Source: Thermoanaerobaculia bacterium (lineage in GTDB: Bacteria > Acidobacteriota > Thermoanaerobaculia > Gp7-AA8). From it: a stretch of DNA of 64,000 bases. Below are positions 15,253-64,000 of this stretch, piece after piece. The notes under the pieces are model-generated. The model had not been told where the DNA came from. It saw only the letters and a list, made by a program, of their open reading frames with translations, and searched no databases. The DNA is taken from the NCBI GenBank assembly GCA_035482045.1, contig DATHRD010000063.1, forward strand, positions 2,541-66,540. The letters run 5' to 3'. Numbering within the stretch: position 1 is the stretch's first letter; every line of letters starts with the position of its first letter. The position numbers and the translations under genes are program-made.

Positions 15253-15358
15253 GTAGCGCCGGCGGCCTCGCCGGCTGGACCGCCGGCGGCTCGCCGGCGA
15301 CATTCTCAAAACCGCCAGCGAGCCGCTGGCAGTCCAGCCGCCGAGCCGGCGGCGCTAC
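15253..15358. repeat. REP-A palindromic element between ssb and the hemolysin-III gene
   Basis: GTAGCGCCGGCGGCCTCGCCGGCTGGACCGCC...CAGTCCAGCCGCCGAGCCGGCGGCGCTAC. Confidence 0.65.
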
Positions 15359-49736: not shown

Positions 49737-50866
49737 GCCGCCGAAGTCTCCCGCAAACGGCTGATGTTGCGCTTGAGATCGTCGACGAGCAGCGCCACGT
49801 GCTCCTTCGTATTCGTCTTGCCCAGTCCGAAACGGATCGAGCCGTACGCCAGCGCTTCCGGCACTCCGATCGCGGTCAGCACCGGCGAAGCGCTTCGATC
49901 GCCCGAGCTGCAGGCGGAGCCCGACGAAAGGGAGAAGTGACGCAGCGCCATCATCACGGAGTCGGCCTCGACCCGATCGAAGCTCACATTCAGGTTACCC
50001 GGCAAACGCCGCTCGCGCGGTCCGTTGACGAACGCCCCCGGCACCTCGGCCACCACGCGATCCCAAAGCTCGTTGCGGAGCGCAGTGAGCCATTCGCATT
50101 CCGCGATCATCTCTTCCCCGCGAATCCGGAACGCCTTGACCATCCCCACCACGCCGGGCACATTCACCGTCCCGCTGCGCACCCGTTTCTCCTGCCCTCC
50201 GCCGAGCATGACCGGCTCGATGCGAATGCCGCGCCGGACGATCATCCCACCGATGCCCTTGGGCCCATAAAGTTTGTGCGCGGAGAAGGCGGCCAGATCG
50301 ACGTTCATCATGTCCAGCGGCACCTTGCCGGCAGCCTGGGTGACGTCGCTGTGAAACAGGACGCCGCGCTCGCGACAGATCGCGCCGAGGACGCCGACCT
50401 GCTGGAGGGTACCGATCTCGCCGTTCGCCGCCTCGACTGAGACCAGCTTCGTGTTGGGCTTCAGCGCGGTTCGCAGCTCCTCGGGATCGATGAACCCTTC
50501 GCTATCCGGGTGCAGCATCGTCACCTCGACCCCGTTCCTTTCCAGCCGCTGCGCGGGGACAAGGATCGACTTGTGCTCCATCGCCGAGGTGATGAAGTGA
50601 TCGCCGGGGAGCAGAAGATTGAGAGCGATGTTGTTCGACTCCGTGGCCCCCGCGGTGAAGTAGACCTCGTTCGGCTGCACCCCGAAGAAACGGGCGATCC
50701 CGAAGCGTGCATCCTCGACCGCGTTCGACGCCCGGCGGCCATGCTCGTGCGTCAGCGAGGCCGGATTGCCGAAGTTCTCCGTGAAGAACGGCAGCATCGC
50801 CTCGACCACGCGCGGGTCGACGGGCGTCGTGGCGTGATGGTCCATGTAGACCGGGAGCTCGGGCAT
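49733..50866 (-). CDS. iscS: cysteine desulfurase (IscS/NifS family)
   Basis: start MPELPVYMDHHATTPVDPRV...; SAHKLYGPKGIG (PLP lysine); SSGSACSS active-site Cys loop. Confidence 0.9.
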   Translation of the reverse strand: MPELPVYMDHHATTPVDPRVVEAMLPFFTENFGNPASLTHEHGRRASNAVEDARFGIARFFGVQPNEVYFTAGATESNNIALNLLLPGDHFITSAMEHKSILVPAQRLERNGVEVTMLHPDSEGFIDPEELRTALKPNTKLVSVEAANGEIGTLQQVGVLGAICRERGVLFHSDVTQAAGKVPLDMMNVDLAAFSAHKLYGPKGIGGMIVRRGIRIEPVMLGGGQEKRVRSGTVNVPGVVGMVKAFRIRGEEMIAECEWLTALRNELWDRVVAEVPGAFVNGPRERRLPGNLNVSFDRVEADSVMMALRHFSLSSGSACSSGDRSASPVLTAIGVPEALAYGSIRFGLGKTNTKEHVALLVDDLKRNISRLRETSAA

Positions 50867-50929
50867 CAGGGAAATGATAACCGCTGCGTGCCGGGATGCC
50901 GCATCGGCTCGTCGCGGGGTTGAGTCGCC

Positions 50930-51160
50930 CGCGTCCATCTGCGGATGAATCAGATCTCGGCAGATTCGGGCTGGGAGCGAACGAACATTGACGCGACGCG
51001 TTCGTACCGAGGGAACGAATCCGCAGATGACGCAGATGAACGCAGATAAAAGCGTCCATCGGTTCTCCATCCGGCGGCGATACTCAAGACCGACGATCCG
51101 CGGATGAAAACGTCCTCCATCTGCGTACATCTGCGTCATCTGCGGATAAGCCTTTTCAAT
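50930..51160. promoter_or_regulatory. dyad of triplicated 9-mers (GCAGATGAC/GCAGATGAA x3 ... CATCTGCGT x3) upstream of iscS
   Basis: CGCAGATGACGCAGATGAACGCAGATA at about 51028; CCATCTGCGTACATCTGCGTCATCTGCGG at about 51117. Confidence 0.4.
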
Positions 51161-51324
51161 CCCGGACTGCGAGACCGCGTCACCAATCGACCCGGCACCT
51201 AACGTTACGGTCCCGCGGACGCGGTGCCGCTCCCGGCTGGGTCCCGAGTGCGATACCATTCGGCGTGCGGCACCGCTCCGCTGACCTTGGAACGTTGGAC
51301 GCTGCGCGCCGTGGAGAAAAACTT

Positions 51325-52050
51325 ATGCATAAGCTTTTCTTATTCGTCGGAATAGCGGTTCTCTTCAATCGAGCAGCGTTCGCAGCCGACGGCTGTGAAC
51401 AAGGAACGTTCCCAGTCAGATCGATCAGCGGTTTCGACCTGTCTAAACCCGGCAATTTGGAAATTGCCATGGATGCATTAAAGTTAGATGAAGGGGACGA
51501 ATTGGAGTTTGCGTCGTCCCACGAAAGCGGTCATAAAACTACGAAGGTTCGGACTTGTCGAGAATATGACGCAGCGATCGAACAGAGACTCTTACTTATG
51601 ACTGGGACTCAGCGGACACCTGAATTTCTGCGTGAGTGTAAAGTCTTGAGATTTCTGAAGAAAGCAAACGCGGCGAGCAGTAGTTGTATCGAGGGGTATC
51701 AATTGACCAAAAAATCGCCGGACGAACTGCCTCCTTCTCTTGGTTACGTTATATCGGGCGAACAAGCAGAAGCAGTCGATAAAGCGGAACAGGTCAATTG
51801 GAGTTGGAGAAAATTTTCGCCAGAACTGGAATTTCATGTTTTGAGCCCCACAACGCTTACTGCCACAGGCCAGGGTGTAGTCGATAAATTAGAAGTCATG
51901 GGATTTGGCGATTTCAATCATGATGGTATCCAGGATATGCTGGTATGGATCAGCGACTACGGTGGAGGAACGTTGGTCCACTACGATGCAATTGTCCTGA
52001 CGCGAAAAGATAAAAAGTCTGGTTTTCACACGTTAGCCAGAATTGAGTGA
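51325..52050 (+). CDS. secreted hypothetical protein encoded in a low-GC islet
   Basis: MHKLFLFVGIAVLFNRAAFAADG signal peptide; clearly AT-richer codon usage than its neighbours; C-terminal GDFNHDGIQD (FG-GAP-like). Confidence 0.55.
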   Translation: MHKLFLFVGIAVLFNRAAFAADGCEQGTFPVRSISGFDLSKPGNLEIAMDALKLDEGDELEFASSHESGHKTTKVRTCREYDAAIEQRLLLMTGTQRTPEFLRECKVLRFLKKANAASSSCIEGYQLTKKSPDELPPSLGYVISGEQAEAVDKAEQVNWSWRKFSPELEFHVLSPTTLTATGQGVVDKLEVMGFGDFNHDGIQDMLVWISDYGGGTLVHYDAIVLTRKDKKSGFHTLARIE

Positions 52051-52124
52051 CTTCGGGTTTCGCGTCCAACAAATCGGTGGGCGTTCCATCGTTGGCCGGG
52101 AACCGGTAGGATCGGACACTGCTT

Positions 52125-52799
52125 ATGAGCTTTCTCATCACCGCCACCCTTCTTTTCGCCACGAAGCTTTCGATCGAAAGCGTCAATCCCGGGAATCAAG
52201 GGAAGGTTTGTTTCGCGACGACCCTGGACGCGAAGGAGTGGATGATGCTGGCGAGGAAGCAGCTCGGACCGGCGGTGATCGACCACCCGACGAAGGAGAT
52301 GCTCGACGAGCACTACTCGGAAATGGATGGCGGCAGCACGTTCGCATTCCAGGTACCGGCGCCCCCGGGGATTGCAGCCGAGGAGGTGACGGTGCTGCAC
52401 CAGGCCGGAGTCCGCGTCGTGCGTGCGGATACTCTGCAGGGAACGCTCCTGGTCCACGGCAAGGAGCGGGAGGCAAACGGGGTGGCGTGCGGCAGCTTGC
52501 CGGACGGAGTCACGCCACTCTTCGTCCTCCGCAACGGCCAGCGGAGCGAGTACCTCGGCAGTGCGACCCTCGTCGATTCGAAAACGTTCCGGTGGAACGA
52601 CAGGCGCTATGCAGTTGGCCAGACACTTCAGGCTGGCGACCTGCGTGCCGTCGCGATCGTGCGCATCGGCATGGACCTCATCGCGGCACTGGTGGGCGCG
52701 GAAGGCAGCGGCGCCTGCGACGGAATCCACGCCCTCATCGATTTGACGAAGGCGGACCTCCCCGTCATCGCGCGCAATACGTGGGGTTGCGGGGATTAA
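52125..52799 (+). CDS. hypothetical protein
   Basis: 224 aa ORF; competes with antisense ORF 52026..53090; no family recognised. Confidence 0.3.
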   Translation: MSFLITATLLFATKLSIESVNPGNQGKVCFATTLDAKEWMMLARKQLGPAVIDHPTKEMLDEHYSEMDGGSTFAFQVPAPPGIAAEEVTVLHQAGVRVVRADTLQGTLLVHGKEREANGVACGSLPDGVTPLFVLRNGQRSEYLGSATLVDSKTFRWNDRRYAVGQTLQAGDLRAVAIVRIGMDLIAALVGAEGSGACDGIHALIDLTKADLPVIARNTWGCGD

Positions 52800-53289
52800 T
52801 GCCGCCCGGGTCAGTCTAAAGTCTACAAAACGCACTTCATCCGTCGCCAGTTCCACGGAGAAAGCGGTCCATCCGGATGCCTGCCGCGCTTCGCCGGCGA
52901 TACTCGTGTCTTCGAGCGATATTTCTCGGAATCCTCCGCAACTGATCGTGTCCGTTTTCCAGAGGCGGCCGCTCTTTCCGAACAGTTGCACGCACATGCC
53001 GTTGTGTTCGACGAGGAACAGCGTCCTGGGCGCATCCATCGTCACTGCGGCGACGTCCGTGCCGATCCGCTCCACGAGGGTTCGCGTCACGAGGATCTAC
53101 TTGTTGGATACTGGCATGATGCCGGAAACGGCGAAGCGGACGCCGAGTCGGATCCTGTCTCGCACACGGGGGTAGTCGCCGATCTCCGCATGCCCGCCGC
53201 TGTCGATCGGCCCGTCGTCGATGCTGATCGTCGCGTACAAGTCGCCGATGAGGGACGGACGGAGACGCGATGGCTTCGAACAACGGATC

Positions 53290-53580
53290 GACTGTCCCTG
53301 ACTCAGCAATTTCTGGTCATCAGTTGCTCATTTAGCGGATCAGATCACCAATTTTGGAATCTCAATTGTCAAGTTTTCGACTTCGATCATGACGTTTGCA
53401 ACTTCGATCATTACGTTTGCGATATTAATCACGAATTTTATGACTGATACCATTACATCAAACGGCTAAATCACCAATTTGACGGATTGTATCGCGAACT
53501 TCGTAACTTCTATCATGAACTTTGCGATTCTATTCATGAGCTTCGCGCCTAACGTCACCAGTTTGATGAGTTAGATCGTT
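53290..53580. repeat. AT-rich region of degenerate direct repeats (ATCACCAATTTGR x3; ACTTCGATCATKACGTTTGC-like about 20-mers x4)
   Basis: direct reading; GC far below the window average. Confidence 0.5.
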
Positions 53581-53710
53581 GAAACATCTGCGGAGACGCC
53601 ATCGTCTCTATCAGAAAAGCGATCACTCGTCACAAGGACACCGCACTTTCCGCCAGCTTCGCCATCAATGAAGTCCGATTCGCCTTCCATGCTGCCGGAT
53701 TCGCCATCGT

Positions 53711-55513
53711 TCAGCTCCTCTTGTGCCGCCGTCTCCGCTTCGTCGCCTCCACCGGCGCCTCGGCGTCGGCGGCGCGGCGCACCCTCTGCGCGAACTGCTG
53801 CCACTGGCGAAAGGCGTCCACGTGTTTTCCTGACGAGAGCGCGTAGAGCTCGAGCAGCGCCAACGCGTCGCTGAACGGCTCGCGGTAGACGAACTTGAAC
53901 TGCGCCCGACGATCGGTCGGCGGCTCCAGCAGGCGCCAGAGCGTGTCGAGGGCCGTCTCGATCTGATGCCGCGTCCCCGCCGCCAGCGCCATGCGCGTAC
54001 ACATCGGCTGAATCAGCTCGCGGATGAAGAGGATCACTTCGCCGATCTTCATGCGCGACGCGCGCCGCGCCTCCTCCCGCTCCAACTCCTGGAGAATCCA
54101 CGGAAGGAACAGCACCGAGAGCAGCACCGGATCGGAGATCTTCCGCCCGGCCTGCACGGTGCGGTCGAGCACCTCCAGCATCTTCCAGAAGTACTGCGAC
54201 TGATCCCCGACGATGGCCTTGTAGACCTCGGGGACGAGTGGATCGAGCAGGCCGCTGTCGACCATCAGGCGGATGGCCCCGCGCGACCAGCCGCGCCGCA
54301 GCAGTTCGAGGATCTCCTCGGAAACGCGCGGGGCGGAGGCCTTCAGGATCTCGGTCTTGTGACGGATGATGGCGTCATAGGTGGCCGGCTCGATCTCGAA
54401 GCCGAGGCGTGAGGCAAACTCGATGGCCCGCATCATCCGCACCGGATCCTCGCGGAAACGGACGTCGGGATCGCCGATCACCCGCACCCGTTTCGCCTCC
54501 AGGTCTTCCAGCCCGCCGACGTAGTCGATCACCGAGAAGTCGGCGATGTTGTAGAAGAGCGCGTTGATGGTGAAGTCGCGCCGCCGCGCGTCCTGCAGGG
54601 GCGACCCGAAGGTGTTGTCGTCGGTGATCAGCAGCTCCTCGGCATCGTCGGCCCGCTCGGGCTCGCGCCGGAAGGTGGCCACCTCGACCAGCATGTCCTG
54701 AAAGATGATGTGTACGAGGCGGAAGCGCCGGCCGATGATGCGGCTGTTGCGGAAGAGGCGCCGGATCTCGGCCGGATGCGCGTCCGTGGCCAGGTCGAAA
54801 TCCTTCGGCGTCCCGCTCATCAGCAGATCGCGTACGCTGCCGCCGCAGAGATAGGCGCGGTAGCCGCTGCGGTGCAACCGGTAGAGGACTTTGAGGACGT
54901 TCTCCGGGATCCGCCGCCGCGAGATGGGGTGGTCGCTGCGGTCGATGACGACGCCGGGATCGTCGGGGATAGGTTCGACGGGGATTGGTTCGACGGGGGT
55001 CGGGAGTCGGGGGTCGGGGGTCGGAGAGAGGGTCAGATCAGGCTCATCGTTGTCGGCTGTCAGTTTTCGGTTCGCGGGGGTCGGGGGTCGGGGGTCGGGA
55101 GTCGGAGGTAGGTCACTGCTGGTTGTCGGTTGTCGGTTGACGGTTATCGCGGGGGCCGGGGGTCGGGGGTCGGGCGTCGGAGAGAGAGCGTTGTCGGTTG
55201 TGGGTTGTGGGCTGTCGGTTGTCGCGGGGGTCGGGAGTCGGGGGTCAAGGGTCGGAGAGAGATTGTTGTCAGTTGTCGGTTGAGGGTCGTCGGTGATCAG
55301 GTGAGATGGCAGGTCCGGCTCATGAGAACTGACGAGCTCCGACCGCCGACCCCCGACTCCCGACTCCCGTTCAGGGTCTGGTTCACCGGAGGCGTCTAAC
55401 TCCGACCCCCGACCCCCGACCCCCGACTCCCGTTCAGGATCAGGTCCATCGGAGGCGACTAACTCCGACCCCCGACCCCCGACTCCCGACCCCCGATTCT
55501 CGATCCCGCTCAT
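53711..55513 (-). CDS. pcnB: poly(A) polymerase I / tRNA nucleotidyltransferase family protein with an about 200 aa low-complexity N-terminal extension
   Basis: core NVLKVLYRLHRSGYRAYLCGGSVRDLL...PKDFDLATDA...RRDFTINALFY matches PcnB. No canonical start codon lies between the repeat region and the core. The ATG at 55513 overlaps the lepB stop (ATGA). Confidence 0.75.
   Translation of the reverse strand: MSGIENRGSGVGGRGSELVASDGPDPERESGVGGRGSELDASGEPDPERESGVGGRRSELVSSHEPDLPSHLITDDPQPTTDNNLSPTLDPRLPTPATTDSPQPTTDNALSPTPDPRPPAPAITVNRQPTTSSDLPPTPDPRPPTPANRKLTADNDEPDLTLSPTPDPRLPTPVEPIPVEPIPDDPGVVIDRSDHPISRRRIPENVLKVLYRLHRSGYRAYLCGGSVRDLLMSGTPKDFDLATDAHPAEIRRLFRNSRIIGRRFRLVHIIFQDMLVEVATFRREPERADDAEELLITDDNTFGSPLQDARRRDFTINALFYNIADFSVIDYVGGLEDLEAKRVRVIGDPDVRFREDPVRMMRAIEFASRLGFEIEPATYDAIIRHKTEILKASAPRVSEEILELLRRGWSRGAIRLMVDSGLLDPLVPEVYKAIVGDQSQYFWKMLEVLDRTVQAGRKISDPVLLSVLFLPWILQELEREEARRASRMKIGEVILFIRELIQPMCTRMALAAGTRHQIETALDTLWRLLEPPTDRRAQFKFVYREPFSDALALLELYALSSGKHVDAFRQWQQFAQRVRRAADAEAPVEATKRRRRHKRS
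54957..55505. repeat. about 550 bp expansion of heptad repeats: (GGGGTCG)n and (GTTGTCG)n blocks followed by their inverted complements (CGACCCC)n
   Basis: direct reading; same TTGTCGG heptads as the elements at 8635, 9953 and 62875. Confidence 0.85.
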
Positions 55514-56268
55514 GGACTTTCGCCGGCCTCGCCCTCGGGCGTCAAACCCGGCGTGAAGTGGTATTTGCTGTCGACGATGAAGAACATCCGTTCCCATCGC
55601 GTCTTCGTGAAGAAGTGGACGGCCACTCCTAGCAATTCCTTGACCCTGGCCGAGCTCGGGGCGTCCTGCGGCGGCGGCGTTCCCTCGAAGGACCAATAGA
55701 CCATGAAGGCGCGCCCCTTGATCATGGAGCGGGGCACGGTCCCCCAGTATCGGGAGTCGCTGGAGCGGTCGCGGTTGTCACCCATGGCGAAGTACTGGCC
55801 ATCGGGGACGAGGTACGGCCCGAACTGGTCCCGCGATCGGTACGGTTCCGGGAGCTGGGGCCGCGGAGGATAGATCGTCGGATCGACATGGATCACGTAT
55901 GGCTCCGACTGGGGCTTGCCGTTGATGGAAACGACCTTGTCGTGGACTTCCACCGTGTCCCCGGGCAGGCCGATCACGCGCTTCACGAAGTCGGTGTCCG
56001 GCTGCAGGGGATACCGGAAGACGATGATGTCGCCGCGCCGGATCGCGCGCAGCGGCAGCAGCCCGCCGAGCGACGTGCCCGGTCCATAGATGAATTTGTT
56101 GACGATGATGTGATCGCCGACCTTCAGGTTGTCTTCCATCGATCCCGTCGGGATCTTGAACGCCTGAAAGGCGAAGATACGGGCAAAGTTGACGAAGATG
56201 ACGGCGATCAGGAGCGCTTCGTAGTACTCGCGGGTCGTTGATTTCTTTACGGTTTCATCGACGGCCAT
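55510..56268 (-). CDS. lepB: signal peptidase I
   Basis: PTGSMEDNL (Ser nucleophile box), GDIIVFRYP, VKRVIGLPGD (Lys box), YFAMGDNRDRSSDSRYWG. Confidence 0.92.
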   Translation of the reverse strand: MAVDETVKKSTTREYYEALLIAVIFVNFARIFAFQAFKIPTGSMEDNLKVGDHIIVNKFIYGPGTSLGGLLPLRAIRRGDIIVFRYPLQPDTDFVKRVIGLPGDTVEVHDKVVSINGKPQSEPYVIHVDPTIYPPRPQLPEPYRSRDQFGPYLVPDGQYFAMGDNRDRSSDSRYWGTVPRSMIKGRAFMVYWSFEGTPPPQDAPSSARVKELLGVAVHFFTKTRWERMFFIVDSKYHFTPGLTPEGEAGESP

Positions 56269-57334
56269 TCGGCGGGGGTATTCCCTTCAGATCGTCCGCG
56301 ATCAGTGCGGCGGCAAATGATTGTACGACAGCGGGTGGGGCGGACAGCGTGTTTCCGTTGCGGGCATAGCGGTGCGGAGGGAGATTCGGGTCCGCTGTGA
56401 TGAAGGTTACAGGGTTGCTGGGGTGCTGGGGTGCTGGGGTGCTGGAGTGCCGGGGTTCCGGGTTGACGACGTAGGTTCGGGTGTTGTCGATCCAGGCCAC
56501 CTTGGCGATGTCGCGCCAGAATGAGTCGCTGACCGCGGGCGCGATGGCGATGGCCACCCGTGCGTTGCGCATGAGCGCGGCCCGCGCGTCGCTCCAGGCG
56601 AATGGGCTGCGGTCGAGCCAGACCACCAGGGGCAGCCGCTCGTTGTAGTGCATGGCATTCGGCCTCATGACCAGCACGCCGCCGATCGGCTCGATGGAGA
56701 CGTCGAGGCGCGCCGCGGGGGCGACCTCCTCCTGCCGCTTCTCTCCCTCGTACGTCATCGACAGCACGCTCTGTGACGCATCCGGAGACTGGACGACCAC
56801 GGCAAACCGGACCGCCTGCGGTTCCCAGGAGAGCGCGTCGATCTGCGTCCGCGGAAAGTCGACCGATAGCTGCGCGGACGTTGGGATGTGAACGGTGCGC
56901 ACGATGCTACCTGTCGGGGTGTGCAGGATATAGCTCACCTTGTGACCCCGAGGAGCCCACTGCACGTTCACCTCGTCCGCGGGGTCCTCGGGGATCCAGT
57001 GGATGTCGCTGCCGTCGATCGATACGAGGCCGACATCGAAGTTGTCCTTCCGTTTGGCCGAGAAGACGATCTCCTTGCGCTCGGGCGAGACGTCGTACGA
57101 GTCGATCGCCAGGAACTCCGGCGTCAGCGCTTTGTCGCCGTTGACGATACGGTTTCCGGCGACGCGAACCGAGGGGAGTTGTGCTCTGGCCACACATTTG
57201 AACGACGCGCAATAGTCGCCGACAAGCGCCGCGGCCGGCACCGATTCCCATCCCTTTGGCAACGGGAGCGACGCGCTGGCGCACCCTCCCAGGAGCAGCA
57301 GCCCCAGCCATGACATCCGTCGCATGCGCTGCAT
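56255..57334 (-). CDS. hypothetical lipoprotein (possible beta-propeller)
   Basis: MSWLGLLLLGGCASA lipobox; no enzymatic motif recognised. Confidence 0.5.
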   Translation of the reverse strand: MQRMRRMSWLGLLLLGGCASASLPLPKGWESVPAAALVGDYCASFKCVARAQLPSVRVAGNRIVNGDKALTPEFLAIDSYDVSPERKEIVFSAKRKDNFDVGLVSIDGSDIHWIPEDPADEVNVQWAPRGHKVSYILHTPTGSIVRTVHIPTSAQLSVDFPRTQIDALSWEPQAVRFAVVVQSPDASQSVLSMTYEGEKRQEEVAPAARLDVSIEPIGGVLVMRPNAMHYNERLPLVVWLDRSPFAWSDARAALMRNARVAIAIAPAVSDSFWRDIAKVAWIDNTRTYVVNPEPRHSSTPAPQHPSNPVTFITADPNLPPHRYARNGNTLSAPPAVVQSFAAALIADDLKGIPPPNGRR

Positions 57335-57424
57335 TCTAACACGCGCTCATAACTCGTTTGTTTACAAGCATCAACAGCCGCCGCCGATTGGCTGCGTTAT
57401 TGCTGAATAACTAAACCAGTACGA

Positions 57425-58282
57425 ATGAGGAGGAATGCGATGATGGATCTACGAAACGAGCTGATCGAGTCCGGATCTCGCCAGAAAGGCCGCGGAGGGA
57501 AAGCCACGCTCGCCTCTCTTGCGATTCACGGCGCCATGATCGGCCTGATCGTCGTCCTGTCCATGCAGGCGACGCAGAAAGTAGCCGCGGAGCACAAGCC
57601 GGAGCTGGCCTACCTTTCGACGAAGGCCGCCCCACCTCCACCGCCACCCCCGCCGCCCGCTGCTTCGCATGCCGCATCGACCCCGAAGATCGTGAAACCG
57701 GTGGAGGTACCGCAGCAGACGTTTGTGCAGCCAACCGAGATTCCTAAAGAAGTCCCGCAAGTCGAGATCCCCACCCCGACCGCCACGGCGCAGGTCGATC
57801 CGACACCATCCACGTCCACTGACCCGCCAGGCGCCCAGGAAGGCGGCGTAGCCGGCGGCGTGGCAGGAGGTGTCGTCGGCGGCCAGATCGGCGGCACGGT
57901 CGGTGGCACAGTCGGTGGCCAGATCGGCGGCGTTCTCGGCGGAACCGGCGAAGGGACCGGCGACGCGAAATCAGCGCCTGACCCCGCCGAGGGACCGCTT
58001 CCGGTTGGAGGCGACGTCAAAGCGCCCGTGGCAATCACACGTTCCAAGCCTGACTACACGGACGCCGCGCGCAAGGCTCACATCACCGGCGTCGTCATCG
58101 TCGAGACCATCGTCAACAAACAGGGAGAAGTCGAGCAGGTGAAGGTACTCAAAGGCTTGCCGCTCGGTCTCAGCGAAGAGGCCGTCGAAGCAGTCAAGAA
58201 GTGGCATTTCCACCCCGGCACACTCAACGGCAAGCCCGTCGAGGTCGTCTTCACGCTGACGGTGAACTTCACGCTGCAGTAG
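57425..58282 (+). CDS. tonB: TonB family energy transducer
   Basis: N-terminal TM anchor, poly-Pro (PPPPPPPPPAA) spacer, Gly-rich linker, C-terminal TonB domain ...GVVIVETIVNKQGEVEQVKVLKGLPL...AVEAVKKWHFHPG. Confidence 0.85.
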   Translation: MRRNAMMDLRNELIESGSRQKGRGGKATLASLAIHGAMIGLIVVLSMQATQKVAAEHKPELAYLSTKAAPPPPPPPPPAASHAASTPKIVKPVEVPQQTFVQPTEIPKEVPQVEIPTPTATAQVDPTPSTSTDPPGAQEGGVAGGVAGGVVGGQIGGTVGGTVGGQIGGVLGGTGEGTGDAKSAPDPAEGPLPVGGDVKAPVAITRSKPDYTDAARKAHITGVVIVETIVNKQGEVEQVKVLKGLPLGLSEEAVEAVKKWHFHPGTLNGKPVEVVFTLTVNFTLQ

Positions 58283-58293
58283 TAGAGCGTAAC

Positions 58294-58332
58294 GTAGCGC
58301 CGGCGGTCCGGCCGGCGAGCCGCCGGCGCTAC
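58294..58332. terminator. short REP-A palindrome (GTAGCGCCGGCGG TCCGGCCGGCGAG CCGCCGGCGCTAC) just after the tonB stop
   Basis: perfect 13 bp arms; position 12 nt after the tonB stop codon. Confidence 0.6.
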
Positions 58333-58677
58333 GTCACCTCAAGCACCGAGCGTCAGAGTACCTGTACCAAAGATCTCAGAAAGGATGCAGAATGCTCCGA
58401 GATTCACCCGTGTTAGGATCAGTCGGAGAGAGACATGGCGACTCGGCGACAGTCAGCAAGAGCGAAACAGCCTGGCGAGCACATCAAGCCATCGCCGGTC
58501 CGCCGCGAACCTTCGACCCGGCGACTTCTTTTTCCAACGGAGCCGAGCACGCTTGGGCGCAAGACGATACAGGACGCTGTCAACGCCGTCCTCCTTAAGA
58601 GCCATCGGACGTAACTCCGAGGCCGATCGGGTCGGATTCTCGATGCGCTCGCGGGCGCCGAAAGATCTTCTGAGGGC

Positions 58678-59295
58678 CTAACTTTGCACGCCCCTGAGCC
58701 AGAAGAGAATCGTGTGCGAAAAGTCCACGAACGTGAGCTCGTTGAGATCCAACCGTAATTCTGAGCATATGCCGCGTAGATCGCTCCGAAACCTGATGTA
58801 GCGGTTGTAGATCGTCGTTCCTCCTGGGATCAGAGCTGAGCCTGATTCCGTTCGGAGCCAATCCCTCACACGAGCGACGGCGATCCTCGGATCGTTGTCA
58901 TGCCGCTGAATATCCAATCCGCCGATGTCTGAGATGAACTTCTGAAATCGATGACCCTCCGAATCGAAGATAAGCAAGGATTTGTCCGCGCGCCTCCGAC
59001 TGAACGATTTGCAACCAAGATCGATACCCAACTCCAACGGCATGTTGAAGCGCGGGAGAGCACTCACTTCGTCGAGTTGCGTCCGAGACAAATCGTGGAT
59101 CGAGAATCGTGACTTTCCAATAAGGCTGACGATCTTCTGAAGGCGTACCTCGCTCGAATCGAGACGCTCGCGGGCGCAACTCGGACGAAAGCCGGCGTCA
59201 TGCACGGTAAAAACGATGGCCTCGAAGATCGGGGCGTATTCCCTGTCAAAAGGACAGTTGATGAATACGTTTTCGTCATAGCCCGAGGGCGCCAT
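58678..59295 (-). CDS. hypothetical protein in a low-GC islet; N-terminal half is tentatively TIR-like / nucleoside-2-deoxyribosyltransferase-like (flavodoxin-like fold)
   Basis: NVFINCPFDREYAPIFEAIVFTVHDAGFRP ... PRFNMPLELGIDLG resemble TIR-like (DUF1863/MTH538) motifs; about 48 % GC in sampled 60-mers versus about 68 % flanks. Assignment is by eye only. Confidence 0.4.
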   Translation of the reverse strand: MAPSGYDENVFINCPFDREYAPIFEAIVFTVHDAGFRPSCARERLDSSEVRLQKIVSLIGKSRFSIHDLSRTQLDEVSALPRFNMPLELGIDLGCKSFSRRRADKSLLIFDSEGHRFQKFISDIGGLDIQRHDNDPRIAVARVRDWLRTESGSALIPGGTTIYNRYIRFRSDLRGICSELRLDLNELTFVDFSHTILFWLRGVQS

Positions 59296-59304
59296 CGTTG
59301 TCCC

Positions 59305-60894
59305 CTACTCCCCCGCCCGCGTCGGCTGCGGCGCTCCAGGCTTCTTGCGCGAGATCGCCTTCGCCTGAAGAAACAGGCCGAGGTAATCGCGGCCGCCGGC
59401 TTTCGAATCGGTCCCCGACATGTTGAAACCGCCGAACGGATGGACGCCCACCAGCGCGCCGGTACATTTGCGATTGAGATAGAGATTGCCGACGAAGAAC
59501 TCCTCGCGCGCGCGTTCGAGCTTCGACTCATCGTCGGTGAAGACCGCGCCGGTGAGTCCGTATTGGGTGTTGTTGGCGATCCGCAGGGCGTCGTCGAAAT
59601 CCTTCGCCCGGCTCACAGCCAGTACCGGCCCGAAGATCTCCTCCTGCGAGATCGTCCCATCGGGAGCCACGTCGCCGATCACGGTCGGCTCGACGAAGAA
59701 GCCCTCGGCGTCGCGCACGTCGCCGCCGGCCAGGAGCTTCCCTCCCTCGGCCTTCCCCTTCTCGATGAACTCCTTGATCTTCCGCATGGCCGACTCGTTC
59801 ACGACAGGACCAACCTGGGTCGATCCCTCTTCCGGCGCGCCGATCCGCAGGGCCTTCGTCTTCGCCACGACCATCGGCACGAACTTGTCGTAGATGGCGT
59901 CGTCGACGATCAGGCGCGAGCAGGCCGAGCACTTCTGTCCCTGGAAACCGAACGCCGAGGCCACCACGGCGGCAGCGGCATCATCGAGATTGCCGGTGTC
60001 GCGGTCGACGATGATGGCGTCCTTCCCACCCATCTCCGCGACGACGCGCTTGATCCAGAGCTGGCCGGGCTTGGCCTTGGCCGCCTCCTCGTTGATGTGC
60101 AGACCGACTTCCTTCGATCCGGTGAAGGAGATGAAGCGAAGGCGCGGGCTCATCACCAGCGGATCGCCGACCTCGGCGCCGGAACCGCTCAGGAAGTTGA
60201 CGACGCCGGGCGGCATCCCCGCTTCCTCGAGCAGGGCAAAGAAGCGCCAGGCGATCCACGGCGCATCCGACGACGGTTTGAGAATGACGCAGTTGCCGGT
60301 GGCGACGGCGGCCGTGGTCATGCCGGCCATGATGGCCAGCGGGAAGTTCCACGGCGGGATGACACCTCCGACGCCGAGGGGAACGTAGACCAGGGCATTG
60401 TCCTCCGAGGCGATCTTCGTTATCGGCTGCTCGCCTCCCCATCGATACGCTTCGCGGGCGTAGAACTCGAGGAAGTCGATTGCCTCGGCGGTGTCGGCGT
60501 CGGCCTCGGGCCAGCTTTTGCCGACCTCGTACACCATCGTGGCCGAGAACTCGTGCTTGCGCTGTCTTAGAAGCGCTGCCGTCTTCACCAGCAGTCCCGC
60601 CCGCACATCGAGCGGCTGGCGCTTCCATGACTCGAAGGCCTTCCATGCGGCGTCCAGAGCGCGCTCGACGTGCTCCCTGGTGGCCTTGTTGAATCGCCCG
60701 AGGAGCTGCGATTTGTGCGACGGGTTGATCGAGTCGTACGTCTTCAGCCCCGTGATCCGTTCACCGCCAATCACGACCGGGTGCTCGCGGCCGAACTCCG
60801 CTCTGACGGTGGCCAGTGCCGCTTCCATCGCCGCTTTCTCCTCAGGTTTGCTAAAGTCGGTCAGCGGTTCGTTCCTGAATTCACTCAGCATCAT
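59305..60894 (-). CDS. L-glutamate gamma-semialdehyde (1-pyrroline-5-carboxylate) dehydrogenase, ALDH superfamily
   Basis: ALDH Glu and Cys motifs (EMGGKD...; GQKCSA); N-terminal region typical of RocA/PruA-type P5CDH. Confidence 0.88.
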   Translation of the reverse strand: MMLSEFRNEPLTDFSKPEEKAAMEAALATVRAEFGREHPVVIGGERITGLKTYDSINPSHKSQLLGRFNKATREHVERALDAAWKAFESWKRQPLDVRAGLLVKTAALLRQRKHEFSATMVYEVGKSWPEADADTAEAIDFLEFYAREAYRWGGEQPITKIASEDNALVYVPLGVGGVIPPWNFPLAIMAGMTTAAVATGNCVILKPSSDAPWIAWRFFALLEEAGMPPGVVNFLSGSGAEVGDPLVMSPRLRFISFTGSKEVGLHINEEAAKAKPGQLWIKRVVAEMGGKDAIIVDRDTGNLDDAAAAVVASAFGFQGQKCSACSRLIVDDAIYDKFVPMVVAKTKALRIGAPEEGSTQVGPVVNESAMRKIKEFIEKGKAEGGKLLAGGDVRDAEGFFVEPTVIGDVAPDGTISQEEIFGPVLAVSRAKDFDDALRIANNTQYGLTGAVFTDDESKLERAREEFFVGNLYLNRKCTGALVGVHPFGGFNMSGTDSKAGGRDYLGLFLQAKAISRKKPGAPQPTRAGE

Positions 60895-60934
60895 TCCTCC
60901 GGGTCCCCTTGTTGCAGATCAAAACGCCGCCGGT

Positions 60935-61675
60935 ATGTACTCGAAAAGCGCTTCCATCGCAATCGCTACGCTGCTGCTGTGCGTATCGTGCTCGTTCACG
61001 CCGCCGTGGGCTGATGAGCCGATCGGCCAGGAAGTGAATCTGTCGTTCGTCATTCGCGACAATCTGATATTCCTCCCCTCTGCGACGGTCGACGGCCGCG
61101 CGGGACAGTTCCTCTTCGGTACAGCTCAGGCCAGGACGGCGCTGGACGAACGCTTCGCCGCCAGCCTGCCCGCGGCGGCTTGGCGCGGCGGGCGGCTCCT
61201 GCAAATCAATCAGAAGGAAGCGCTCCACTTCACACCGGTGGTTCTGGACTTGCATTCTGTGGCTGACGGCATCATCGGCGCCGATGTGTGGGGCAGTCGC
61301 GCCGTCTCGATCGACTACACCTCGGGGTTGATCACGTATCAGAAAGAAGGAATCCATCCGGAGCTGATGACCATCTACCGCTTCGCCGCCGAGCCGCGCG
61401 TAACCGTCATCGTCGACGGAAAGCCGGTGGATGCCATCGTCGACACGACCTCTCCCGACACGCTGACGCTTCCGCGCGGCGCCGCCCCCGCCGGCCGGAC
61501 GCACGCGCGTCTGCAGCTCGGCGGAGCCGATCTGGGCAACCTCGATATCCACCTCGCCGACGTCTCCGATCCGCGCGTCGGCAACCGCGTCCTCTCCAAA
61601 TTTCTCGTGACGATCGACTACGGAACGCGCGAAGTCGGACTATGGCGCGACCCGCGAACCCTACAGGAGCACTAG
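60935..61675 (+). CDS. retropepsin-like (clan AA) aspartic protease lipoprotein
   Basis: MYSKSASIAIATLLLCVSCS lipobox; two half-sites ...FGTAQA... and ...VDTTSPDT... resembling D[TS]G[AS] loops. Confidence 0.55.
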   Translation: MYSKSASIAIATLLLCVSCSFTPPWADEPIGQEVNLSFVIRDNLIFLPSATVDGRAGQFLFGTAQARTALDERFAASLPAAAWRGGRLLQINQKEALHFTPVVLDLHSVADGIIGADVWGSRAVSIDYTSGLITYQKEGIHPELMTIYRFAAEPRVTVIVDGKPVDAIVDTTSPDTLTLPRGAAPAGRTHARLQLGGADLGNLDIHLADVSDPRVGNRVLSKFLVTIDYGTREVGLWRDPRTLQEH

Positions 61676-61681
61676 AATCAG

Positions 61682-62863
61682 ATGATGCGAACAACGCTCG
61701 CGTTCCTTCTACTCGGCGTCGCCACGGCCGCGGGCGCCCAATCATCGCTGCAGTTTCACGGGTACCTCGCCGCGCGCGAGATCTACGTCAACGCCCAGCC
61801 CGGGTGGCTTCAGGACGGCGTGGGGCGCTTCGATGTCGGCGCGGCCAATCCCGACGACCATCACCTCGTCAACGTCGACAGCGCGCAACTGGGCCTCGAC
61901 TGGACGCCATCCTCCTGGTTCCTGTTCCACGGAGACGGCGTGGCGCGGCATGAGCAGTCCGGCTCCGGCGGCAAACGCGCCGGCATCGTGCAGGCCTACC
62001 TCGAAATCCACAACCCGCACTGGCGCCTGCGCGCCGGCGAGTTCTGGCTGCCGACGTCCCGGGAGAACACGGATCCTCTCTGGACGTCGAAGTACACGAT
62101 CACCTACTCCGCGCTGAACTCGTGGATCGCCCAGGAAGTGCGGCCGATCGGCGCGGACCTGCAGTGGTCGCCGAGCTTCTACGTGACGGTCGGCGGGACA
62201 GCCTTTCGAGGGAATGACACGATGGGCACCGCGCTGGCCGCCCGCGGCTGGACGCTCGGTAACTATCTGACCACGTATGACGAGCGCATCCCGCTGCCGG
62301 ATTACGACTCGGTGCGGCCGATCGGCGCGGATCTCGACAACAAGAACGGCTATTCCGAGCGCGTTCGCGTGTCCCTTCCCGAGCGTGCCATGCTCCAGGT
62401 TGCACACATCGACAACCGCGCACCGATTTCTCCGGTCGATCTGAAGGGTCAGACGCCGTGGCAGACGCACTTCAACGTCGTCAGCGGAGAGGCCGGTACG
62501 ACGGGCGACACCACGGTCGCGGCGGAATGGGCGTACGGCTCGACCGCGGTGGGATTCCCGGGTGGCCGCTTCACCATGGATTTCGATACCGAGTACCTGC
62601 TGGCCTCTCACAAGTTCGGTACGGAGCGTGTCAGCGCACGCGTCGAGCGATTCTCGACGCGCGATGCGTTGCGTCCGCCCACCGACGGCAGCCGTGAGAA
62701 CGGCCGCGCCTGGACCGTGGCCTGGATGCACGATGCCAGCGCCAACGCACGCACCGGCATCGAATACGTGAGGGTCAGCGGCAACCGCCCCGGCCTCGCG
62801 CCAGACTTCGATCCACGCACCGGCGGTTCGACGGTAACGATCGAGTACCGGTACGGGTTCTGA
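61682..62863 (+). CDS. secreted, probable outer-membrane beta-barrel protein of unknown function
   Basis: signal peptide MMRTTLAFLLLGVATAAGAQ; alternating amphipathic pattern; ends with aromatic ...YRYGF; paralog starts at 63028. Confidence 0.5.
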   Translation: MMRTTLAFLLLGVATAAGAQSSLQFHGYLAAREIYVNAQPGWLQDGVGRFDVGAANPDDHHLVNVDSAQLGLDWTPSSWFLFHGDGVARHEQSGSGGKRAGIVQAYLEIHNPHWRLRAGEFWLPTSRENTDPLWTSKYTITYSALNSWIAQEVRPIGADLQWSPSFYVTVGGTAFRGNDTMGTALAARGWTLGNYLTTYDERIPLPDYDSVRPIGADLDNKNGYSERVRVSLPERAMLQVAHIDNRAPISPVDLKGQTPWQTHFNVVSGEAGTTGDTTVAAEWAYGSTAVGFPGGRFTMDFDTEYLLASHKFGTERVSARVERFSTRDALRPPTDGSRENGRAWTVAWMHDASANARTGIEYVRVSGNRPGLAPDFDPRTGGSTVTIEYRYGF

Positions 62864-62874
62864 GTCTGCGCCTT

Positions 62875-63002
62875 GCGCGTTGTCGGTTGTCGGTTGTCGG
62901 GCGCTGCGGAGCGCGTGGGAACGAGCGTTCAAGACGCGCGCCCACGTCCGACATTCAACGGGCACCAACAACCAACCGACAACCGACAACCGACAACGCC
63001 GC
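62875..63002. repeat. heptad-repeat palindromic element separating the two outer-membrane paralogs
   Basis: GCGCGTTGTCGGTTGTCGGTTGTCGGG ... CCGACAACCGACAACCGACAACGCC; core similar to the copy at 9953. Confidence 0.7.
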
Positions 63003-63027
63003 ACAGCGGCAGAACTACAATCCCCTC

Positions 63028-64000
63028 ATGCGGTCCTTCCGTCTGGCACTCCTCACCCTCGCCCTCGCCTCTCCGGCGATCGCGCAATCGGCGTTCCAGC
63101 TTCACGGCTTCCTCTCTGCTCGTGAGATCTATACGAGTGGACAGCCCTCGTGGCTCGAGGGCGGGTTCGGCCGCTTCGACACGGGCGCGTCAGGCGTCAA
63201 CGACCATCGCATCCTGACGCTCGGCGCCGCCCAGGTCGGCGCCGACTGGACGCCAGTATCGTGGCTCAACCTCCACGCCAGCGGTGTGGCGCGCCGCGAC
63301 CAACCGGGCGCGGAGGGCAAACGCACCGGCCTCGTCGACGCATACGTCAACCTGCACTCCGAGCATTTCGATGTTCGCGCCGGCCAGTTCTTCCTCGCCA
63401 CGTCGCGCGAGAACACCGGTCCGCTCTGGACCTCTCCATACACCGTCAACTTCTCGCCGCTCAACTCATGGATCGGTGAAGAGTTCCGCCCCGTGGGGAT
63501 CGACCTCGCCTGGCGGCCAAACCTCTACGTGACGGCAGCCGCCACCGCCTTTCGCAACAACGACACGCTCGGTGCGCTCCTGGCGTGGCGGGGCTGGTCG
63601 GTCGGTAACCGCCTTACGGTCTACGACGAAGTCCTTCCCTTGCCACCGCTCTTCTCTCTCCCCACCACATTCGCCAAGCAGCGCCACGACGGTACCGTCC
63701 CATTCGAGCGCGATCTCGACGGGCGCACCGGCATCTCGGCCCGACTCCGGCTGCAACTCCCCGAACGAGCAATGGCGCAGGTCACGCACGTCGACAACCG
63801 CGGCGAACGTGACGAGTATCGCGGCGAATACGCATGGCAGACGCGCTTCAACATCGCCGCCGCGCAGGTAGGCCTCACCTCGCCGGCGACAATCGCCACC
63901 GAGTACTGCTGGGGCAAGACCGGCATGGGGGATGCGCCCCGTTTCGTGCAGGCGGACTTCGCGACCTGGTACATCCTCACGTCGTACAAGCTCGGTAACG
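63028..64000 (+). CDS. paralog of the preceding outer-membrane-like protein, 3'-truncated by the window end
   Basis: MRSFRLALLTLALASPAIAQSAFQLHGFLSAREIY... aligns with MMRTTLAF...QSSLQFHGYLAAREIY; absent from the ORF track because no stop lies in the window. Confidence 0.5.
   Translation, partial: MRSFRLALLTLALASPAIAQSAFQLHGFLSAREIYTSGQPSWLEGGFGRFDTGASGVNDHRILTLGAAQVGADWTPVSWLNLHASGVARRDQPGAEGKRTGLVDAYVNLHSEHFDVRAGQFFLATSRENTGPLWTSPYTVNFSPLNSWIGEEFRPVGIDLAWRPNLYVTAAATAFRNNDTLGALLAWRGWSVGNRLTVYDEVLPLPPLFSLPTTFAKQRHDGTVPFERDLDGRTGISARLRLQLPERAMAQVTHVDNRGERDEYRGEYAWQTRFNIAAAQVGLTSPATIATEYCWGKTGMGDAPRFVQADFATWYILTSYKLGN

Follow-up and report, generated by a model that had tools for sequence, protein, structure and literature searches.

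We propose that a 205-aa TIR-like protein gene and a convergent 59-aa gene, lying side by side in the window (the whole stretch of 64,000 nucleotides that was analysed), make up a compact, horizontally acquired two-gene conflict module with a NAD+-cleaving effector, of the anti-phage abortive-infection or of the toxin-antitoxin kind. We put the chances of this proposal being right at about even. It draws on the fold of the larger protein, the conservation of its active site and the alignment of that site with SfSTING, the linkage of the two genes, the modularity of a short tag in the smaller protein, and the mobile and defence contexts of the relatives, each of which was observed. Both genes are part of a candidate module, of the defence or of the toxin-antitoxin type, that is very widespread.

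The Large Gene and Its Surroundings

The larger gene is real, as the first-pass annotation had it: the ORF on the minus strand starts with ATG, has thousands of full-length homologues and is under purifying selection, with 27 synonymous versus 6 non-synonymous codon differences from a 97 %-identical relative. Directly upstream on the same strand lies the gene of L-glutamate gamma-semialdehyde (P5C) dehydrogenase (NF002852, 782 bits with a cut-off of 648), in agreement with the order given earlier. The neighbours in the window are housekeeping genes (this dehydrogenase, a TonB-like gene and a signal peptidase gene), and a defence island is absent. Such a housekeeping neighbourhood counts against a conflict module.

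The GC content of the ORF is 53.9 % with a GC3 of 66 %, compared with 63.9 % GC for the whole window and GC3 values of 75-85 % in the neighbouring genes, and the ORF falls within the lowest 2 % of 618-nt windows by GC. Low GC had been noticed before with the right direction, but the quoted contrast of 48 to 68 % was overstated; single 60-mers inside the ORF range from 42 to 68 %. The low GC and GC3 of the gene in this window give it a foreign composition, which speaks for the module proposed here.

The P5C dehydrogenase gene and the TIR-like gene are only 9 nt apart, which leaves no room for a terminator or a promoter, so the latter is probably transcribed by read-through from the former. No sigma-70-like promoter was detected around the gene pair, and no intrinsic terminator was found in positions 58000-61200. 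The earlier placement of the gene behind a REP terminator therefore does not hold: a REP-like hairpin does exist, but beyond the small ORF. It follows directly on the stop codon (58282) of the tonB-like gene, which is convergent, and lies some 340 bp past the stop of the 205-aa ORF, where it marks the far edge of the two-gene insert. The stretch 58283-58345 folds with a dG of -43.5 kcal/mol (z = -5.9), and a 13-mer of the hairpin occurs in 10 copies in the window versus 0.41 expected. No RNA family of Rfam was found in positions 50000-64000. As the spacer between the two genes holds no detected intrinsic terminator, the 3′ ends of the convergent transcripts may overlap. A short direct-repeat similarity between this spacer and the gene interior was also seen and judged likely to be due to chance.

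Table 1. Position of the gene pair, its motifs and the flanking elements in the window.
Feature	Positions	Strand	Basis or remark
TIR-like 205-aa protein gene	58678..59295	-	ATG-started ORF
Strand beta-1 motif VFINCPFD (residues 10-17)	59245..59268	-	conservation and model
Core active-site motif PRFNMPLELG (residues 81-90), start of helix alpha-3 (alpha-C)	59026..59055	-	conservation and profile-to-PDB alignment
S122-D123, loop after strand beta-4	58927..58932	-	invariant; aligns with SfSTING T109-D110
Spacer between the two convergent stop codons, 63 nt	58615..58677	.	ORF coordinates
Gap from P5C dehydrogenase stop (59305) to TIR-like gene ATG (59295), 9 nt	59296..59304	-	
REP-like GC-rich hairpin, 18-nt arms, 94 % complementary	58289..58337	.	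inverted repeat
59-aa partner gene, basic N-terminal half and conserved C-terminal core	58435..58614	+	ORF; convergent on TIR-like gene
Partner core (tag) RRLLFPTEPSTLGRKTIQDAVNAVLLK	58519..58599	+	family consensus RIIKDPPKRGTVSREQIRRAVRKVIAER

Fold and Remote Homology

The model of the 205-aa protein has a pLDDT of 93.8 and a pTM of 0.91. Its flavodoxin/TIR fold extends over residues ~9-150; two further helices, 159-179 and 189-204, lie C-terminal to it. The fold has the structural marks of the TIR superfamily, namely a flavodoxin-like three-layer arrangement, five parallel strands, the TIR order of helices, and solved TIR domains as best matches; the top Foldseek matches were SPARTA TIR-APAZ, the SfSTING TIR and an NDT. 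The fold by itself does not tell TIR from NDT, MilB or LOG. The TIR-/NDT-like flavodoxin-fold call of the first-pass annotation is thus borne out by the model, by Foldseek and by PF10137, though not its restriction to the N-terminus.

Sequence searches with the window protein itself, even at E <= 10, came back empty for Pfam, NCBIfam, PADLOC and the PDB, and it was solely the structure and the scanning of many relatives that gave the link to TIR. The only Pfam family recurring among 74 family members was PF10137, the TIR of CAP12 and Pycsar effectors, with matches in 24 of them (best E 4.2e-4), all below the gathering threshold of 24.7 bits. For example, a Sphingomonas member matched it over residues 44-129 with 16.2 bits. 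The only meaningful PDB match of the family profile was the SfSTING TIR (7un8_A) at E = 0.42, an alignment that leans on its agreement with the fold matches. Since all TIR sequence matches are sub-threshold, they speak for remote homology and not for family membership. The 205-aa protein thus appears to be an unannotated, distant relative of the bacterial immune TIR enzymes that break down NAD+, without belonging to a curated family. Its nearest relative is the CAP12/PycTIR clade rather than ThsB, the affinity suggested before, as the PADLOC ThsB models do not match it.

Active Site

Conservation was measured over the 74 sequences, which are 37-97 % identical to the window protein. Both peptides quoted by the first-pass annotation are present (Table 1). 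In the first of them N13, C14, P15 and F16 are conserved in at least 90 % of sequences; by its position this motif would match the beta-A and first-loop region of the nucleotide pocket in TIR domains. In the second, N84 and E88 are invariant, as are S122 and D123 farther along the chain, and R82 is conserved in at least 90 %. Also invariant or nearly so are R51, D68 and S70. In the model E88 lies after strand 3, at the start of helix 84-98. The conserved glutamate in helix alpha-C that marks enzymatic TIR domains is therefore E88 here, and the alignment check for a catalytic Glu proposed earlier came out positive. In the profile alignment R82, N84 and E88 fall on SfSTING R78, N80 and E84. In SfSTING itself R78 and N80 are NADase residues, as is the catalytic E84, and D110 completes the active site of the neighbouring subunit (PMC9402430).

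A similar layout raises the question of an enzyme of another kind. The protein could be a nucleoside or nucleotide N-glycosidase, or a transferase, of the NDT/MilB/RCL/LOG type, which acts on nucleotides or modified bases instead of NAD+ and serves housekeeping salvage or, as an effector, depletion of the nucleotide pool. The NDT family has the arrangement 'D...D-x-G-T-x-x-E-x-G', and the beta-3 ...D, loop, xxNxxxE-x-G layout seen here resembles it; strong conservation across phyla would suit a metabolic role. However, none of the 74 members matches an NDT or LOG Pfam family, so that the likeness to NDT, MilB, RCL (DNPH1) and LOG stays at the level of the fold, whereas the matches to the CAP12/PycTIR TIR were repeated. 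The R-x-N-x3-E spacing and the trans-acting Asp agree with SfSTING. A salvage enzyme would not be expected to show the patchy distribution, the low GC, the carriage on plasmids, the varying context and the obligatory mini-partner seen here, which are the behaviour of a mobile conflict gene. We regard a nucleotide-directed enzyme as distinctly unlikely.

Partner Gene and Its Tag

The gene had been called solitary, with the advice to look for partner genes elsewhere in the genome. A conserved partner exists directly adjacent, across the spacer, and had been overlooked. A GGAGAG Shine-Dalgarno-like sequence stands 6-11 nt before its ATG. The ORF is absent from the gene calls of public assemblies, and the protein has no match in Pfam or NCBIfam. 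In comparison with the 97 %-identical relative, its core differs by 3 synonymous changes and an in-frame indel of 3 nt, with no non-synonymous change. The loci L005 and L006 have the identical layout and the same partner protein.

How general is this linkage? All-against-all clustering of the ORFs around 84 loci left the small ORFs as the only conserved neighbour, and a core of ~25 aa is the sole part common to all partner proteins. An exact search for the LFPTEP motif recovered only the partners of the closest clade, and an iterated HMM was used instead. With it the core motif was found at 63 of the 84 loci at E < 0.01 and at about 71 when weaker matches are included. At these ~71 loci a motif-bearing ORF lies within 900 bp of the large gene, upstream in 51 cases, downstream on the same strand in 17 and convergent in 3. 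As a control, 603 kb of distal flank gave 2 motif matches versus 65 in 140 kb beside the gene, where the motif is thus ~140-fold denser. The small gene usually comes first, with a stop/start overlap or a few nt between the genes in the closest relatives and a distance within 20 nt in most loci. Thirteen loci show no partner, which speaks against a module, although several of them are truncated contigs. The convergent layout recurs in L011 and L012, which are only 60-62 % identical and occupy a different insertion site, downstream of an M20 peptidase gene; there the convergent stop codons overlap by 4 nt.

It might be asked whether the pair in the window is a fossil, that is, a decaying or domesticated insert whose large gene is carried along by P5C dehydrogenase read-through and whose small ORF is a chance or non-functional one. 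The rarity of the convergent layout, the small ORF left uncalled and the missing sigma-70-like promoter would fit such decay. Yet both ORFs are intact, the codon differences of the large gene are mostly synonymous, the core of the small gene shows synonymous changes and an in-frame indel only, and the same layout recurs at another site in more distant relatives; a fossil is therefore a very improbable explanation. The apparent co-transcription with P5C dehydrogenase and the position of the partner on the other strand are odd for a stoichiometrically controlled toxin, and count against a module.

The core is also met outside such partners, fused to DUF2188, TPR repeats or a CBASS CD-NTase; the tag-DUF2188 fusion matches the PADLOC candidate PDC-S16. 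Because the core is fused elsewhere to sensors and enzymes, the CBASS CD-NTase included, it may be a portable TIR-recruiting tag. The presence of the tag on very different proteins (CD-NTase, TPR, DUF2188) would also be expected of a plain docking system, in which the TIR-like domain binds tag-bearing proteins without any enzymatic step, in the manner of animal TIR adaptors or of a receiver-like domain. Polar residues that are invariant or nearly so at exactly the catalytic positions are difficult to account for if there is neither catalysis nor specific binding of a ligand, and we consider a non-catalytic adaptor improbable. No natural fusion of partner and enzyme was found among 269 retrieved proteins. 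One candidate for such a fusion, P0159, was rejected, as it looks like a frameshift artefact.

Distribution and Genomic Contexts of the Family

Full-length homologues number in the thousands, and clustering at 50 % identity divides the family into 2,700 groups or more. The family spans Acidobacteriota, Poribacteria, Planctomycetota, Verrucomicrobiota, Proteobacteria and more, with full-length identities of ~70 % within Thermoanaerobaculia and 40-50 % across phyla. This unusually strong conservation counts against a module, in that it could instead mean a constrained cellular function. The family is carried by 17 plasmids and 13 IMG/VR contigs; close relatives were not found in the viral structure library or in phage genomes. 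In the literature on DUF2188, TIR-like toxin-antitoxin systems, PF10137 and SfSTING no description of the family was found.

The neighbourhoods vary from genome to genome, so that the homologues do not sit in fixed housekeeping contexts, which together with the TIR/NDT signal leaves standing the defence-type reading of the first-pass annotation. Some members adjoin PIN/Phd toxin-antitoxin genes, and some genomes have two copies. At one locus at least (L043) the gene forms a two-gene operon in which the tag sits on a partner recognised by PADLOC as a CBASS oligonucleotide cyclase (E 5e-125), whose gene adjoins an Eco57I-type RM gene and TnpB. The partners at L025 and L059 resemble this cyclase partner by look alone. 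On a conjugative Sphingomonas plasmid the gene is part of a three-gene operon including an Mrr-type nuclease (Mrr_cat), while a Rhizobium plasmid relative is associated with a RecB-like nuclease in an operon or fusion. Fusions of the TIR-like domain itself involve a canonical TIR_2 domain in one relative and a PDC-S54-type C-terminal domain in P0185.

Such nuclease associations, the extra TIR_2 domain and the conserved TIR active-site residues would also fit a signal-generating TIR of the Thoeris ThsB type, which turns NAD+ into a small-molecule signal activating a separate effector. In the three-gene variants the adjacent nuclease would fill this role; for the window, it would fall to a product encoded elsewhere or to the mini-protein, acting on DNA. 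Against this, most loci, the window included, consist of the enzyme and a 50-70-aa partner alone, SLOG, Macro or another ligand-sensing effector being absent, and the family escapes the ThsB models. The nearest relatives point the same way, as CAP12 and PycTIR deplete NAD+ as effectors and are not signal producers (bioRxiv 2025.12.03.692087). A signalling enzyme therefore seems unlikely to us.

Comparison with Known Systems

With CAP12 (TIR-STING) and the Pycsar PycTIR (PF10137) the window protein shares the fold, the PR-x-N-x3-E-x-G motif and the S/T-D loop. In contrast to them it has no STING, SAVED or cNMP-binding sensor (no recognisable sensor domain was detected in it) and ends in the two additional helices. 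Its partner is a small tag-bearing protein, and there is no cyclase near the window gene; an adjacent cyclase occurs in a minority of loci, e.g., L043, and is absent at most. The protein thus lacks what would define a CBASS or Pycsar effector.

Like Thoeris ThsB, it is a bacterial protein of ~200 aa in which the TIR fold stands alone and a catalytic Glu, here a predicted one, is conserved, and it occurs in small operons. Unlike ThsB, its partner is a basic protein of 50-70 aa, and an adjacent ThsA-type effector gene is absent. The family matches neither the PADLOC ThsB models nor Pfam PF08937/TIR_2 and does not qualify as Thoeris.

RES-Xre and MbcT-MbcA are type II toxin-antitoxin modules with NAD+-degrading toxins. 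They resemble the present pair in having two small adjacent genes, plasmid carriage, variable contexts, sometimes beside other toxin-antitoxin pairs, and NAD+ as the presumed target. The toxin fold, however, is unrelated, no DNA-binding antitoxin fold can be recognised in the small partner, and the core of this partner also tags large enzymes. Adjacency of the toxin-antitoxin style with stop/start overlap is found in most relatives, whereas the genes of the window are convergent.

A precedent for the proposed reading is DUF4062 'Swarozyc', a recently recognised TIR-like family of Pfam-'unknown' status which proved to be a NADase in phage defence (bioRxiv 10.64898/2026.05.01.722283). None of the 74 members matches DUF4062, and partner and architecture differ.

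Proposed Function

In the conflict-module reading, the two genes would form a unit bounded on one side by the 3′ end of the P5C dehydrogenase gene, on the other by the REP-like hairpin. The 205-aa protein would belong to the CAP12/PycTIR lineage as a divergent TIR-type N-glycosidase and would most likely cleave NAD+. Here E88 would be catalytic, the ribose-phosphate would be held by R82 and N84, and the neighbouring subunit would contribute D123, so the enzyme may be active only as an oligomer. The convergent gene would provide a basic mini-protein whose ~25-aa core couples to the TIR-like protein, probably by binding. This core may be a docking or inhibitory peptide, keeping the enzyme monomeric until the mini-protein is lost; alternatively, it may be a tether which gathers enzyme molecules on a trigger. 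The module would serve in defence or addiction.

If this is true, then a 'hypothetical protein' family as large as this one, with no model in Pfam, NCBIfam or PADLOC, is a TIR-type NAD+-cleaving effector. The core of the mini-gene, recurring on other immune proteins, would offer a concrete hypothesis for the control of a sensor-less TIR, and a CBASS cyclase would be linked to an effector by means that do not involve a fused nucleotide receptor. Since gene callers miss the partner, surveys that drop 'stand-alone TIRs' would overlook the whole system.

We also put forward, as a tentative proposal with considerably less than an even chance, that these loci represent a new immune or addiction class: a TIR NADase ruled by a portable ~25-aa tag and not by a fused nucleotide-sensor. 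The tag would sit on a mini-protein or be grafted onto a CBASS CD-NTase, TPR proteins, DUF2188 or a URI-like nuclease, with recruitment or release through protein-peptide docking, and the convergent, host-gene-driven layout of the window would be a distinct regulatory subtype. In this particular genome, under the module reading, a small piece of foreign DNA would have been inserted where the proline-catabolism gene has its 3′ end.

Locus organization and composition

The predicted 205-aa ORF is present on the minus strand, and both peptides quoted for it in the first-pass annotation were found in it. The P5C dehydrogenase (P5CDH) gene lies upstream on the same strand, as had been reported, with a gap of just 9 nt between its stop codon and the ATG of the TIR-like gene. 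No intrinsic terminator was found in 58000-61200. The large gene is apparently transcribed along with P5CDH, and a partner gene lies on the opposite strand (Table).

Table. Coordinates of the features considered (tonB-like, REP-like and partner features belong to the window)
Feature	Sequence	Position	Strand	Remarks
TIR-like gene	window	58678-59295	-	205 aa, ATG start
Partner gene	window	58435-58614	+	59 aa; same protein as the small ORF of relatives; convergent on the 205-aa gene
P5C dehydrogenase gene	window	59305-60894	-	NF002852, 782 bits vs cut-off 648
tonB-like gene	window	57425-58282	opposite to the 205-aa ORF	convergent
REP-like hairpin	window	58289-58337 (arms)		dG -43.5 kcal/mol, z = -5.9
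REP-like palindromic element family	window	3018-3384, 10597-10698, 15253-15358, 47644-47656, 58294-58332		based on the 13-mer GTAGCGCCGGCGG
Two-gene operon L043	Poribacteria chromosome OZ246979.1	6001-7947		TIR-like gene, then tagged CBASS-type cyclase
Three-gene operon L088	Sphingomonas psychrotolerans conjugative plasmid NZ_CP024924.1	3301-4973

The GC content of the ORF is 53.9 % (GC3 66 %) versus 63.9 % for the window, the GC3 of flanking genes is 75-85 %, and just 2 % of 618-nt windows reach so low a GC content. The anomaly noticed by eye is real, but its size (48 versus 68 %) had been overstated. Is this low-GC gene then only a decaying insert? Compared with L005, a 97 %-identical relative of the same layout, 27 codon differences in the large gene are synonymous and 6 are non-synonymous; in the core of the partner the numbers are 3 and 0, plus an in-frame 3-nt indel. 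Because these differences are mostly synonymous, both genes are under purifying selection, and we consider decay very improbable.

The REP terminator behind which the gene was said to lie does exist as a REP-like hairpin, but it directly follows the convergent tonB-like gene, at the opposite edge of the locus and not in front of the TIR-like gene. The underlying 13-mer, with at most one mismatch, occurs 10 times in the window (0.41 expected); most copies form inverted pairs spaced by 26-90 nt. Three direct-repeat matches (15-20 nt, 85-89 % identity) join the spacer of the convergent genes (58625-58683) to the 5′ part of the TIR-like gene (59131-59241) in reversed order; possibly they are due to chance.

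Fold and predicted active site of the large protein

Sequence searches with the window protein as query gave no match in Pfam, PADLOC, NCBIfam or PDB sequences. Its AlphaFold model is confident (pLDDT 93.8, pTM 0.91). Residues 9-150 form a five-stranded flavodoxin-like core, and two helices come after it (159-179 and 189-204). Structural matches were interleaved: MilB (11.8), NDTs (11.1), RCL, LOG, CAP12 TIR-STING (10.3), SARM1, SpbK and Cat1, with receiver domains up to about 9. Foldseek returned SPARTA TIR-APAZ, the SfSTING TIR and an NDT, and the viral structure library returned CAP12/PycTIR-type and NDT proteins, weakly.

The tie between TIR and NDT was broken by sequence profiles. PF10137 (CAP12/Pycsar effector TIR) was matched by 24 of 74 family members scanned singly (best E 4.2e-4), and no other Pfam family was matched by more than one of them; the single meaningful PDB match of the family profile was SfSTING (7un8_A, E = 0.42). 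An NDT/LOG-like nucleotide glycosidase, with which the NDT and LOG structures would agree, is unlikely on this evidence. The TIR-like fold guessed in the first-pass annotation gains support from the model, the fold matches and PF10137. Membership of the curated PF10137 family was rejected because the Pfam threshold was missed. The further suggestion of a ThsB type failed, since PADLOC and Pfam scans gave no ThsB match; a ThsB-like signal producer is rather unlikely.

In the 74-sequence alignment R51, D68, S70, N84, E88, G90, S122 and D123 are invariant, and N13, C14, P15, F16, Y20, E43, H67, R82, F83, M85, P86, D128, H132 and R144 are conserved in at least 90 %. The profile alignment pairs family PRfNMplELGlflGa...SDlaGqd with SfSTING PRDNVVFEFGLFLGA...TDLDGIT. 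After applying an 8-residue offset to chain 7un8_A, SfSTING R78, N80, E84 and T109-D110 align with family R82, N84, E88 and S122-D123. In SfSTING, R78 and N80 are ribose/phosphate ligands, E84 is the catalytic residue, and D110 enters the active site of the dimer mate upon filament formation (PMC9402430). The position that answers to the conserved catalytic Glu, which the first-pass annotation proposed to check, is E88, and a non-catalytic adaptor of the same fold appears quite improbable. We conclude that this protein is remotely homologous to TIR NADases of the CAP12/PycTIR type, its catalytic constellation being intact.

The partner gene and its tag

Contrary to the first-pass annotation, the gene is not solitary: the partner ORF adjoins it in the window, and a similar ORF stands beside the genes of relatives. 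There, a 56-70-aa ORF with the core [ILV]LFPTEPS.IGR..I..AV.AV usually lies on the same strand just ahead of the large gene; its stop codon overlaps the start codon of that gene or is about 10 nt away from it. In the window the spacer between the convergent genes is 63 nt, and a Shine-Dalgarno-like GGAGAG precedes the partner, an ORF that public annotation of the identical locus omits. In two public assemblies of this locus (L104, L105), automatic calls leave the 395-bp gap from the TIR-like gene to tonB empty, so the partner is absent from public annotation.

A tag HMM seeded with 13 cores was run in repeated rounds against the six-frame translated sequence up to 900 bp from the large gene. 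At E < 0.01 the motif (consensus RIIKDPPKRGTVSREQIRRAVRKVIAER, about 25 aa) was found in 63/84 loci, and counting weaker matches that end just before the large gene raises this to about 71/84; the seed model without iteration already found 51. As a control, the model gave 65 matches in 140 kb of proximal sequence versus 2 in 603 kb of distal flank, a contrast to be read with caution since the proximal set served for training. This search also revealed additional tag-bearing ORFs several kb away in loci L027 and L033. Most partners have 48-100 aa, with a basic, low-complexity N-terminus before the core.

Partners lie upstream on the same strand (n=51), downstream on the same strand (n=17, mostly Poribacteria) or convergent (n=3: the window, L011 and L012). 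In the latter two (60-62 % identity), the 3′ end of an M20 peptidase gene directly borders the large gene, and the convergent stop codons overlap by 4 nt. The cassette has therefore been inserted behind different housekeeping genes, P5CDH and M20 peptidase, and the convergent form is a recurring subtype rather than a local accident.

Distribution and operons of relatives

A search of clusters at 90 % identity yielded at least 7,899 matches to the family; those listed all bear the name hypothetical protein and carry no Pfam domain. An exhaustive HMMER scan gave 2,744 clusters at 50 % identity with E <= 1e-3 (1,629 with E <= 1e-10), conserved end to end. Species-representative genomes contain at least 593 matching loci, in Acidobacteriota, Poribacteria, Planctomycetota, Verrucomicrobiota, Nitrospirota, Gemmatimonadota, Bacteroidota, Desulfobacterota, Betaproteobacteria, Chloroflexota and Clostridia, with two copies in some genomes and neighbourhoods that vary between genomes. 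The family also occurs on 17 plasmids (8 conjugative) and 13 IMG/VR contigs; none was found in deposited phage genomes.

The tag core also stands at the start or end of larger proteins: a DUF2188 protein (Pfam E 1.5e-27; PADLOC candidate PDC-S16, E 1e-35), a TPR protein, a protein of about 600 aa without recognised type and a possible URI/GIY-YIG-like nuclease (weak match, E 0.02). In L043 the tag lies within the first 47 residues of a genuine CBASS oligonucleotide cyclase (PADLOC Cyclase E 5e-125, residues 48-410); the neighbours of this operon are an Eco57I-type restriction-modification gene and a TnpB gene. The operon resembles a form of CBASS in which the effector lacks any known nucleotide-sensor domain. 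The downstream partners in L025 and L059 resemble that of L043 in length and C-terminal sequence. The L088 operon runs from the gene of a small tag protein (WP_158299049) through that of the TIR-like protein (WP_100284608) to that of an Mrr_cat restriction endonuclease (WP_100284609); neighbouring genes are separated by 3-4 nt. On a Rhizobium plasmid the pair is followed by a RecB-like nuclease gene.

Fusions were found as well. Homologue P0141 has a canonical TIR_2 domain N-terminal to the TIR-like domain, and P0185 a PDC-S54-type domain C-terminal to it. In four others (P0125, P0131, P0149, P0174) the TIR-like domain is fused to a common C-terminal domain of roughly 100 aa with the motif FVIL...Y(M/L)Q...LEYQ.G.LDEHY...W, which matched nothing in Pfam or PADLOC.

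Proposed function

The best-supported reading, to which we give about even chances, is a mobile two-gene conflict module. The analysis shows the fold, the conserved pocket, the linkage of the two genes, the modular use of the tag and the defence or mobile surroundings of relatives; substrate, gating, physical binding, direction of regulation and biological role are inferred. The enzyme would cleave NAD+ through E88, another nucleotide being a less likely target. D123 would be supplied by a neighbouring subunit, as in SfSTING, so that activity would be gated by oligomerisation. The tag core would be the coupling element, because it is the sole feature common to otherwise unrelated partners. A tag-only partner could then be an antitoxin-like peptide preventing self-association until lost, or a basic, nucleic-acid-binding tether gathering the enzyme on a trigger. 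Against the conflict module, however, stand the TIR sequence signals, all sub-threshold, the housekeeping neighbours in the window, the apparent dependence on P5CDH with the partner on the other strand, and conservation unusually high for a defence gene.

The bacterial TIR effector as a kind is already known. What looks new is an architecture without a sensor, in which the partner carries a portable peptide tag, and a convergent layout driven by a host gene. Pfam (2025), NCBIfam (2026) and PADLOC (2023) hold no model for enzyme or tag, and no published description of the family was found in the literature. A recent systematic TIR survey explicitly left out stand-alone and CBASS/Pycsar TIRs (bioRxiv 2025.12.03.692087), so the family would be excluded even if detected.

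Other features of the window

Two further ORFs, 51265-52050 (+; 261 aa, N-terminus signal-peptide-like or lipoprotein-like) and 52125-52799 (+; 224 aa), lie in the stretch of lowest GC (0.47-0.53) and may be another foreign insert. A GC trough of 0.40 at 53300-53600 comes shortly after the stop codon of a 661-aa ORF (53711-55696, -), whose C-terminal part resembles a poly(A) polymerase or CCA-adding enzyme and whose N-terminal ~250 aa consist of repeated SGVGGRGSEL and PTPDPRLPTP units. GC skew reaches +0.5 over 54800-55400.
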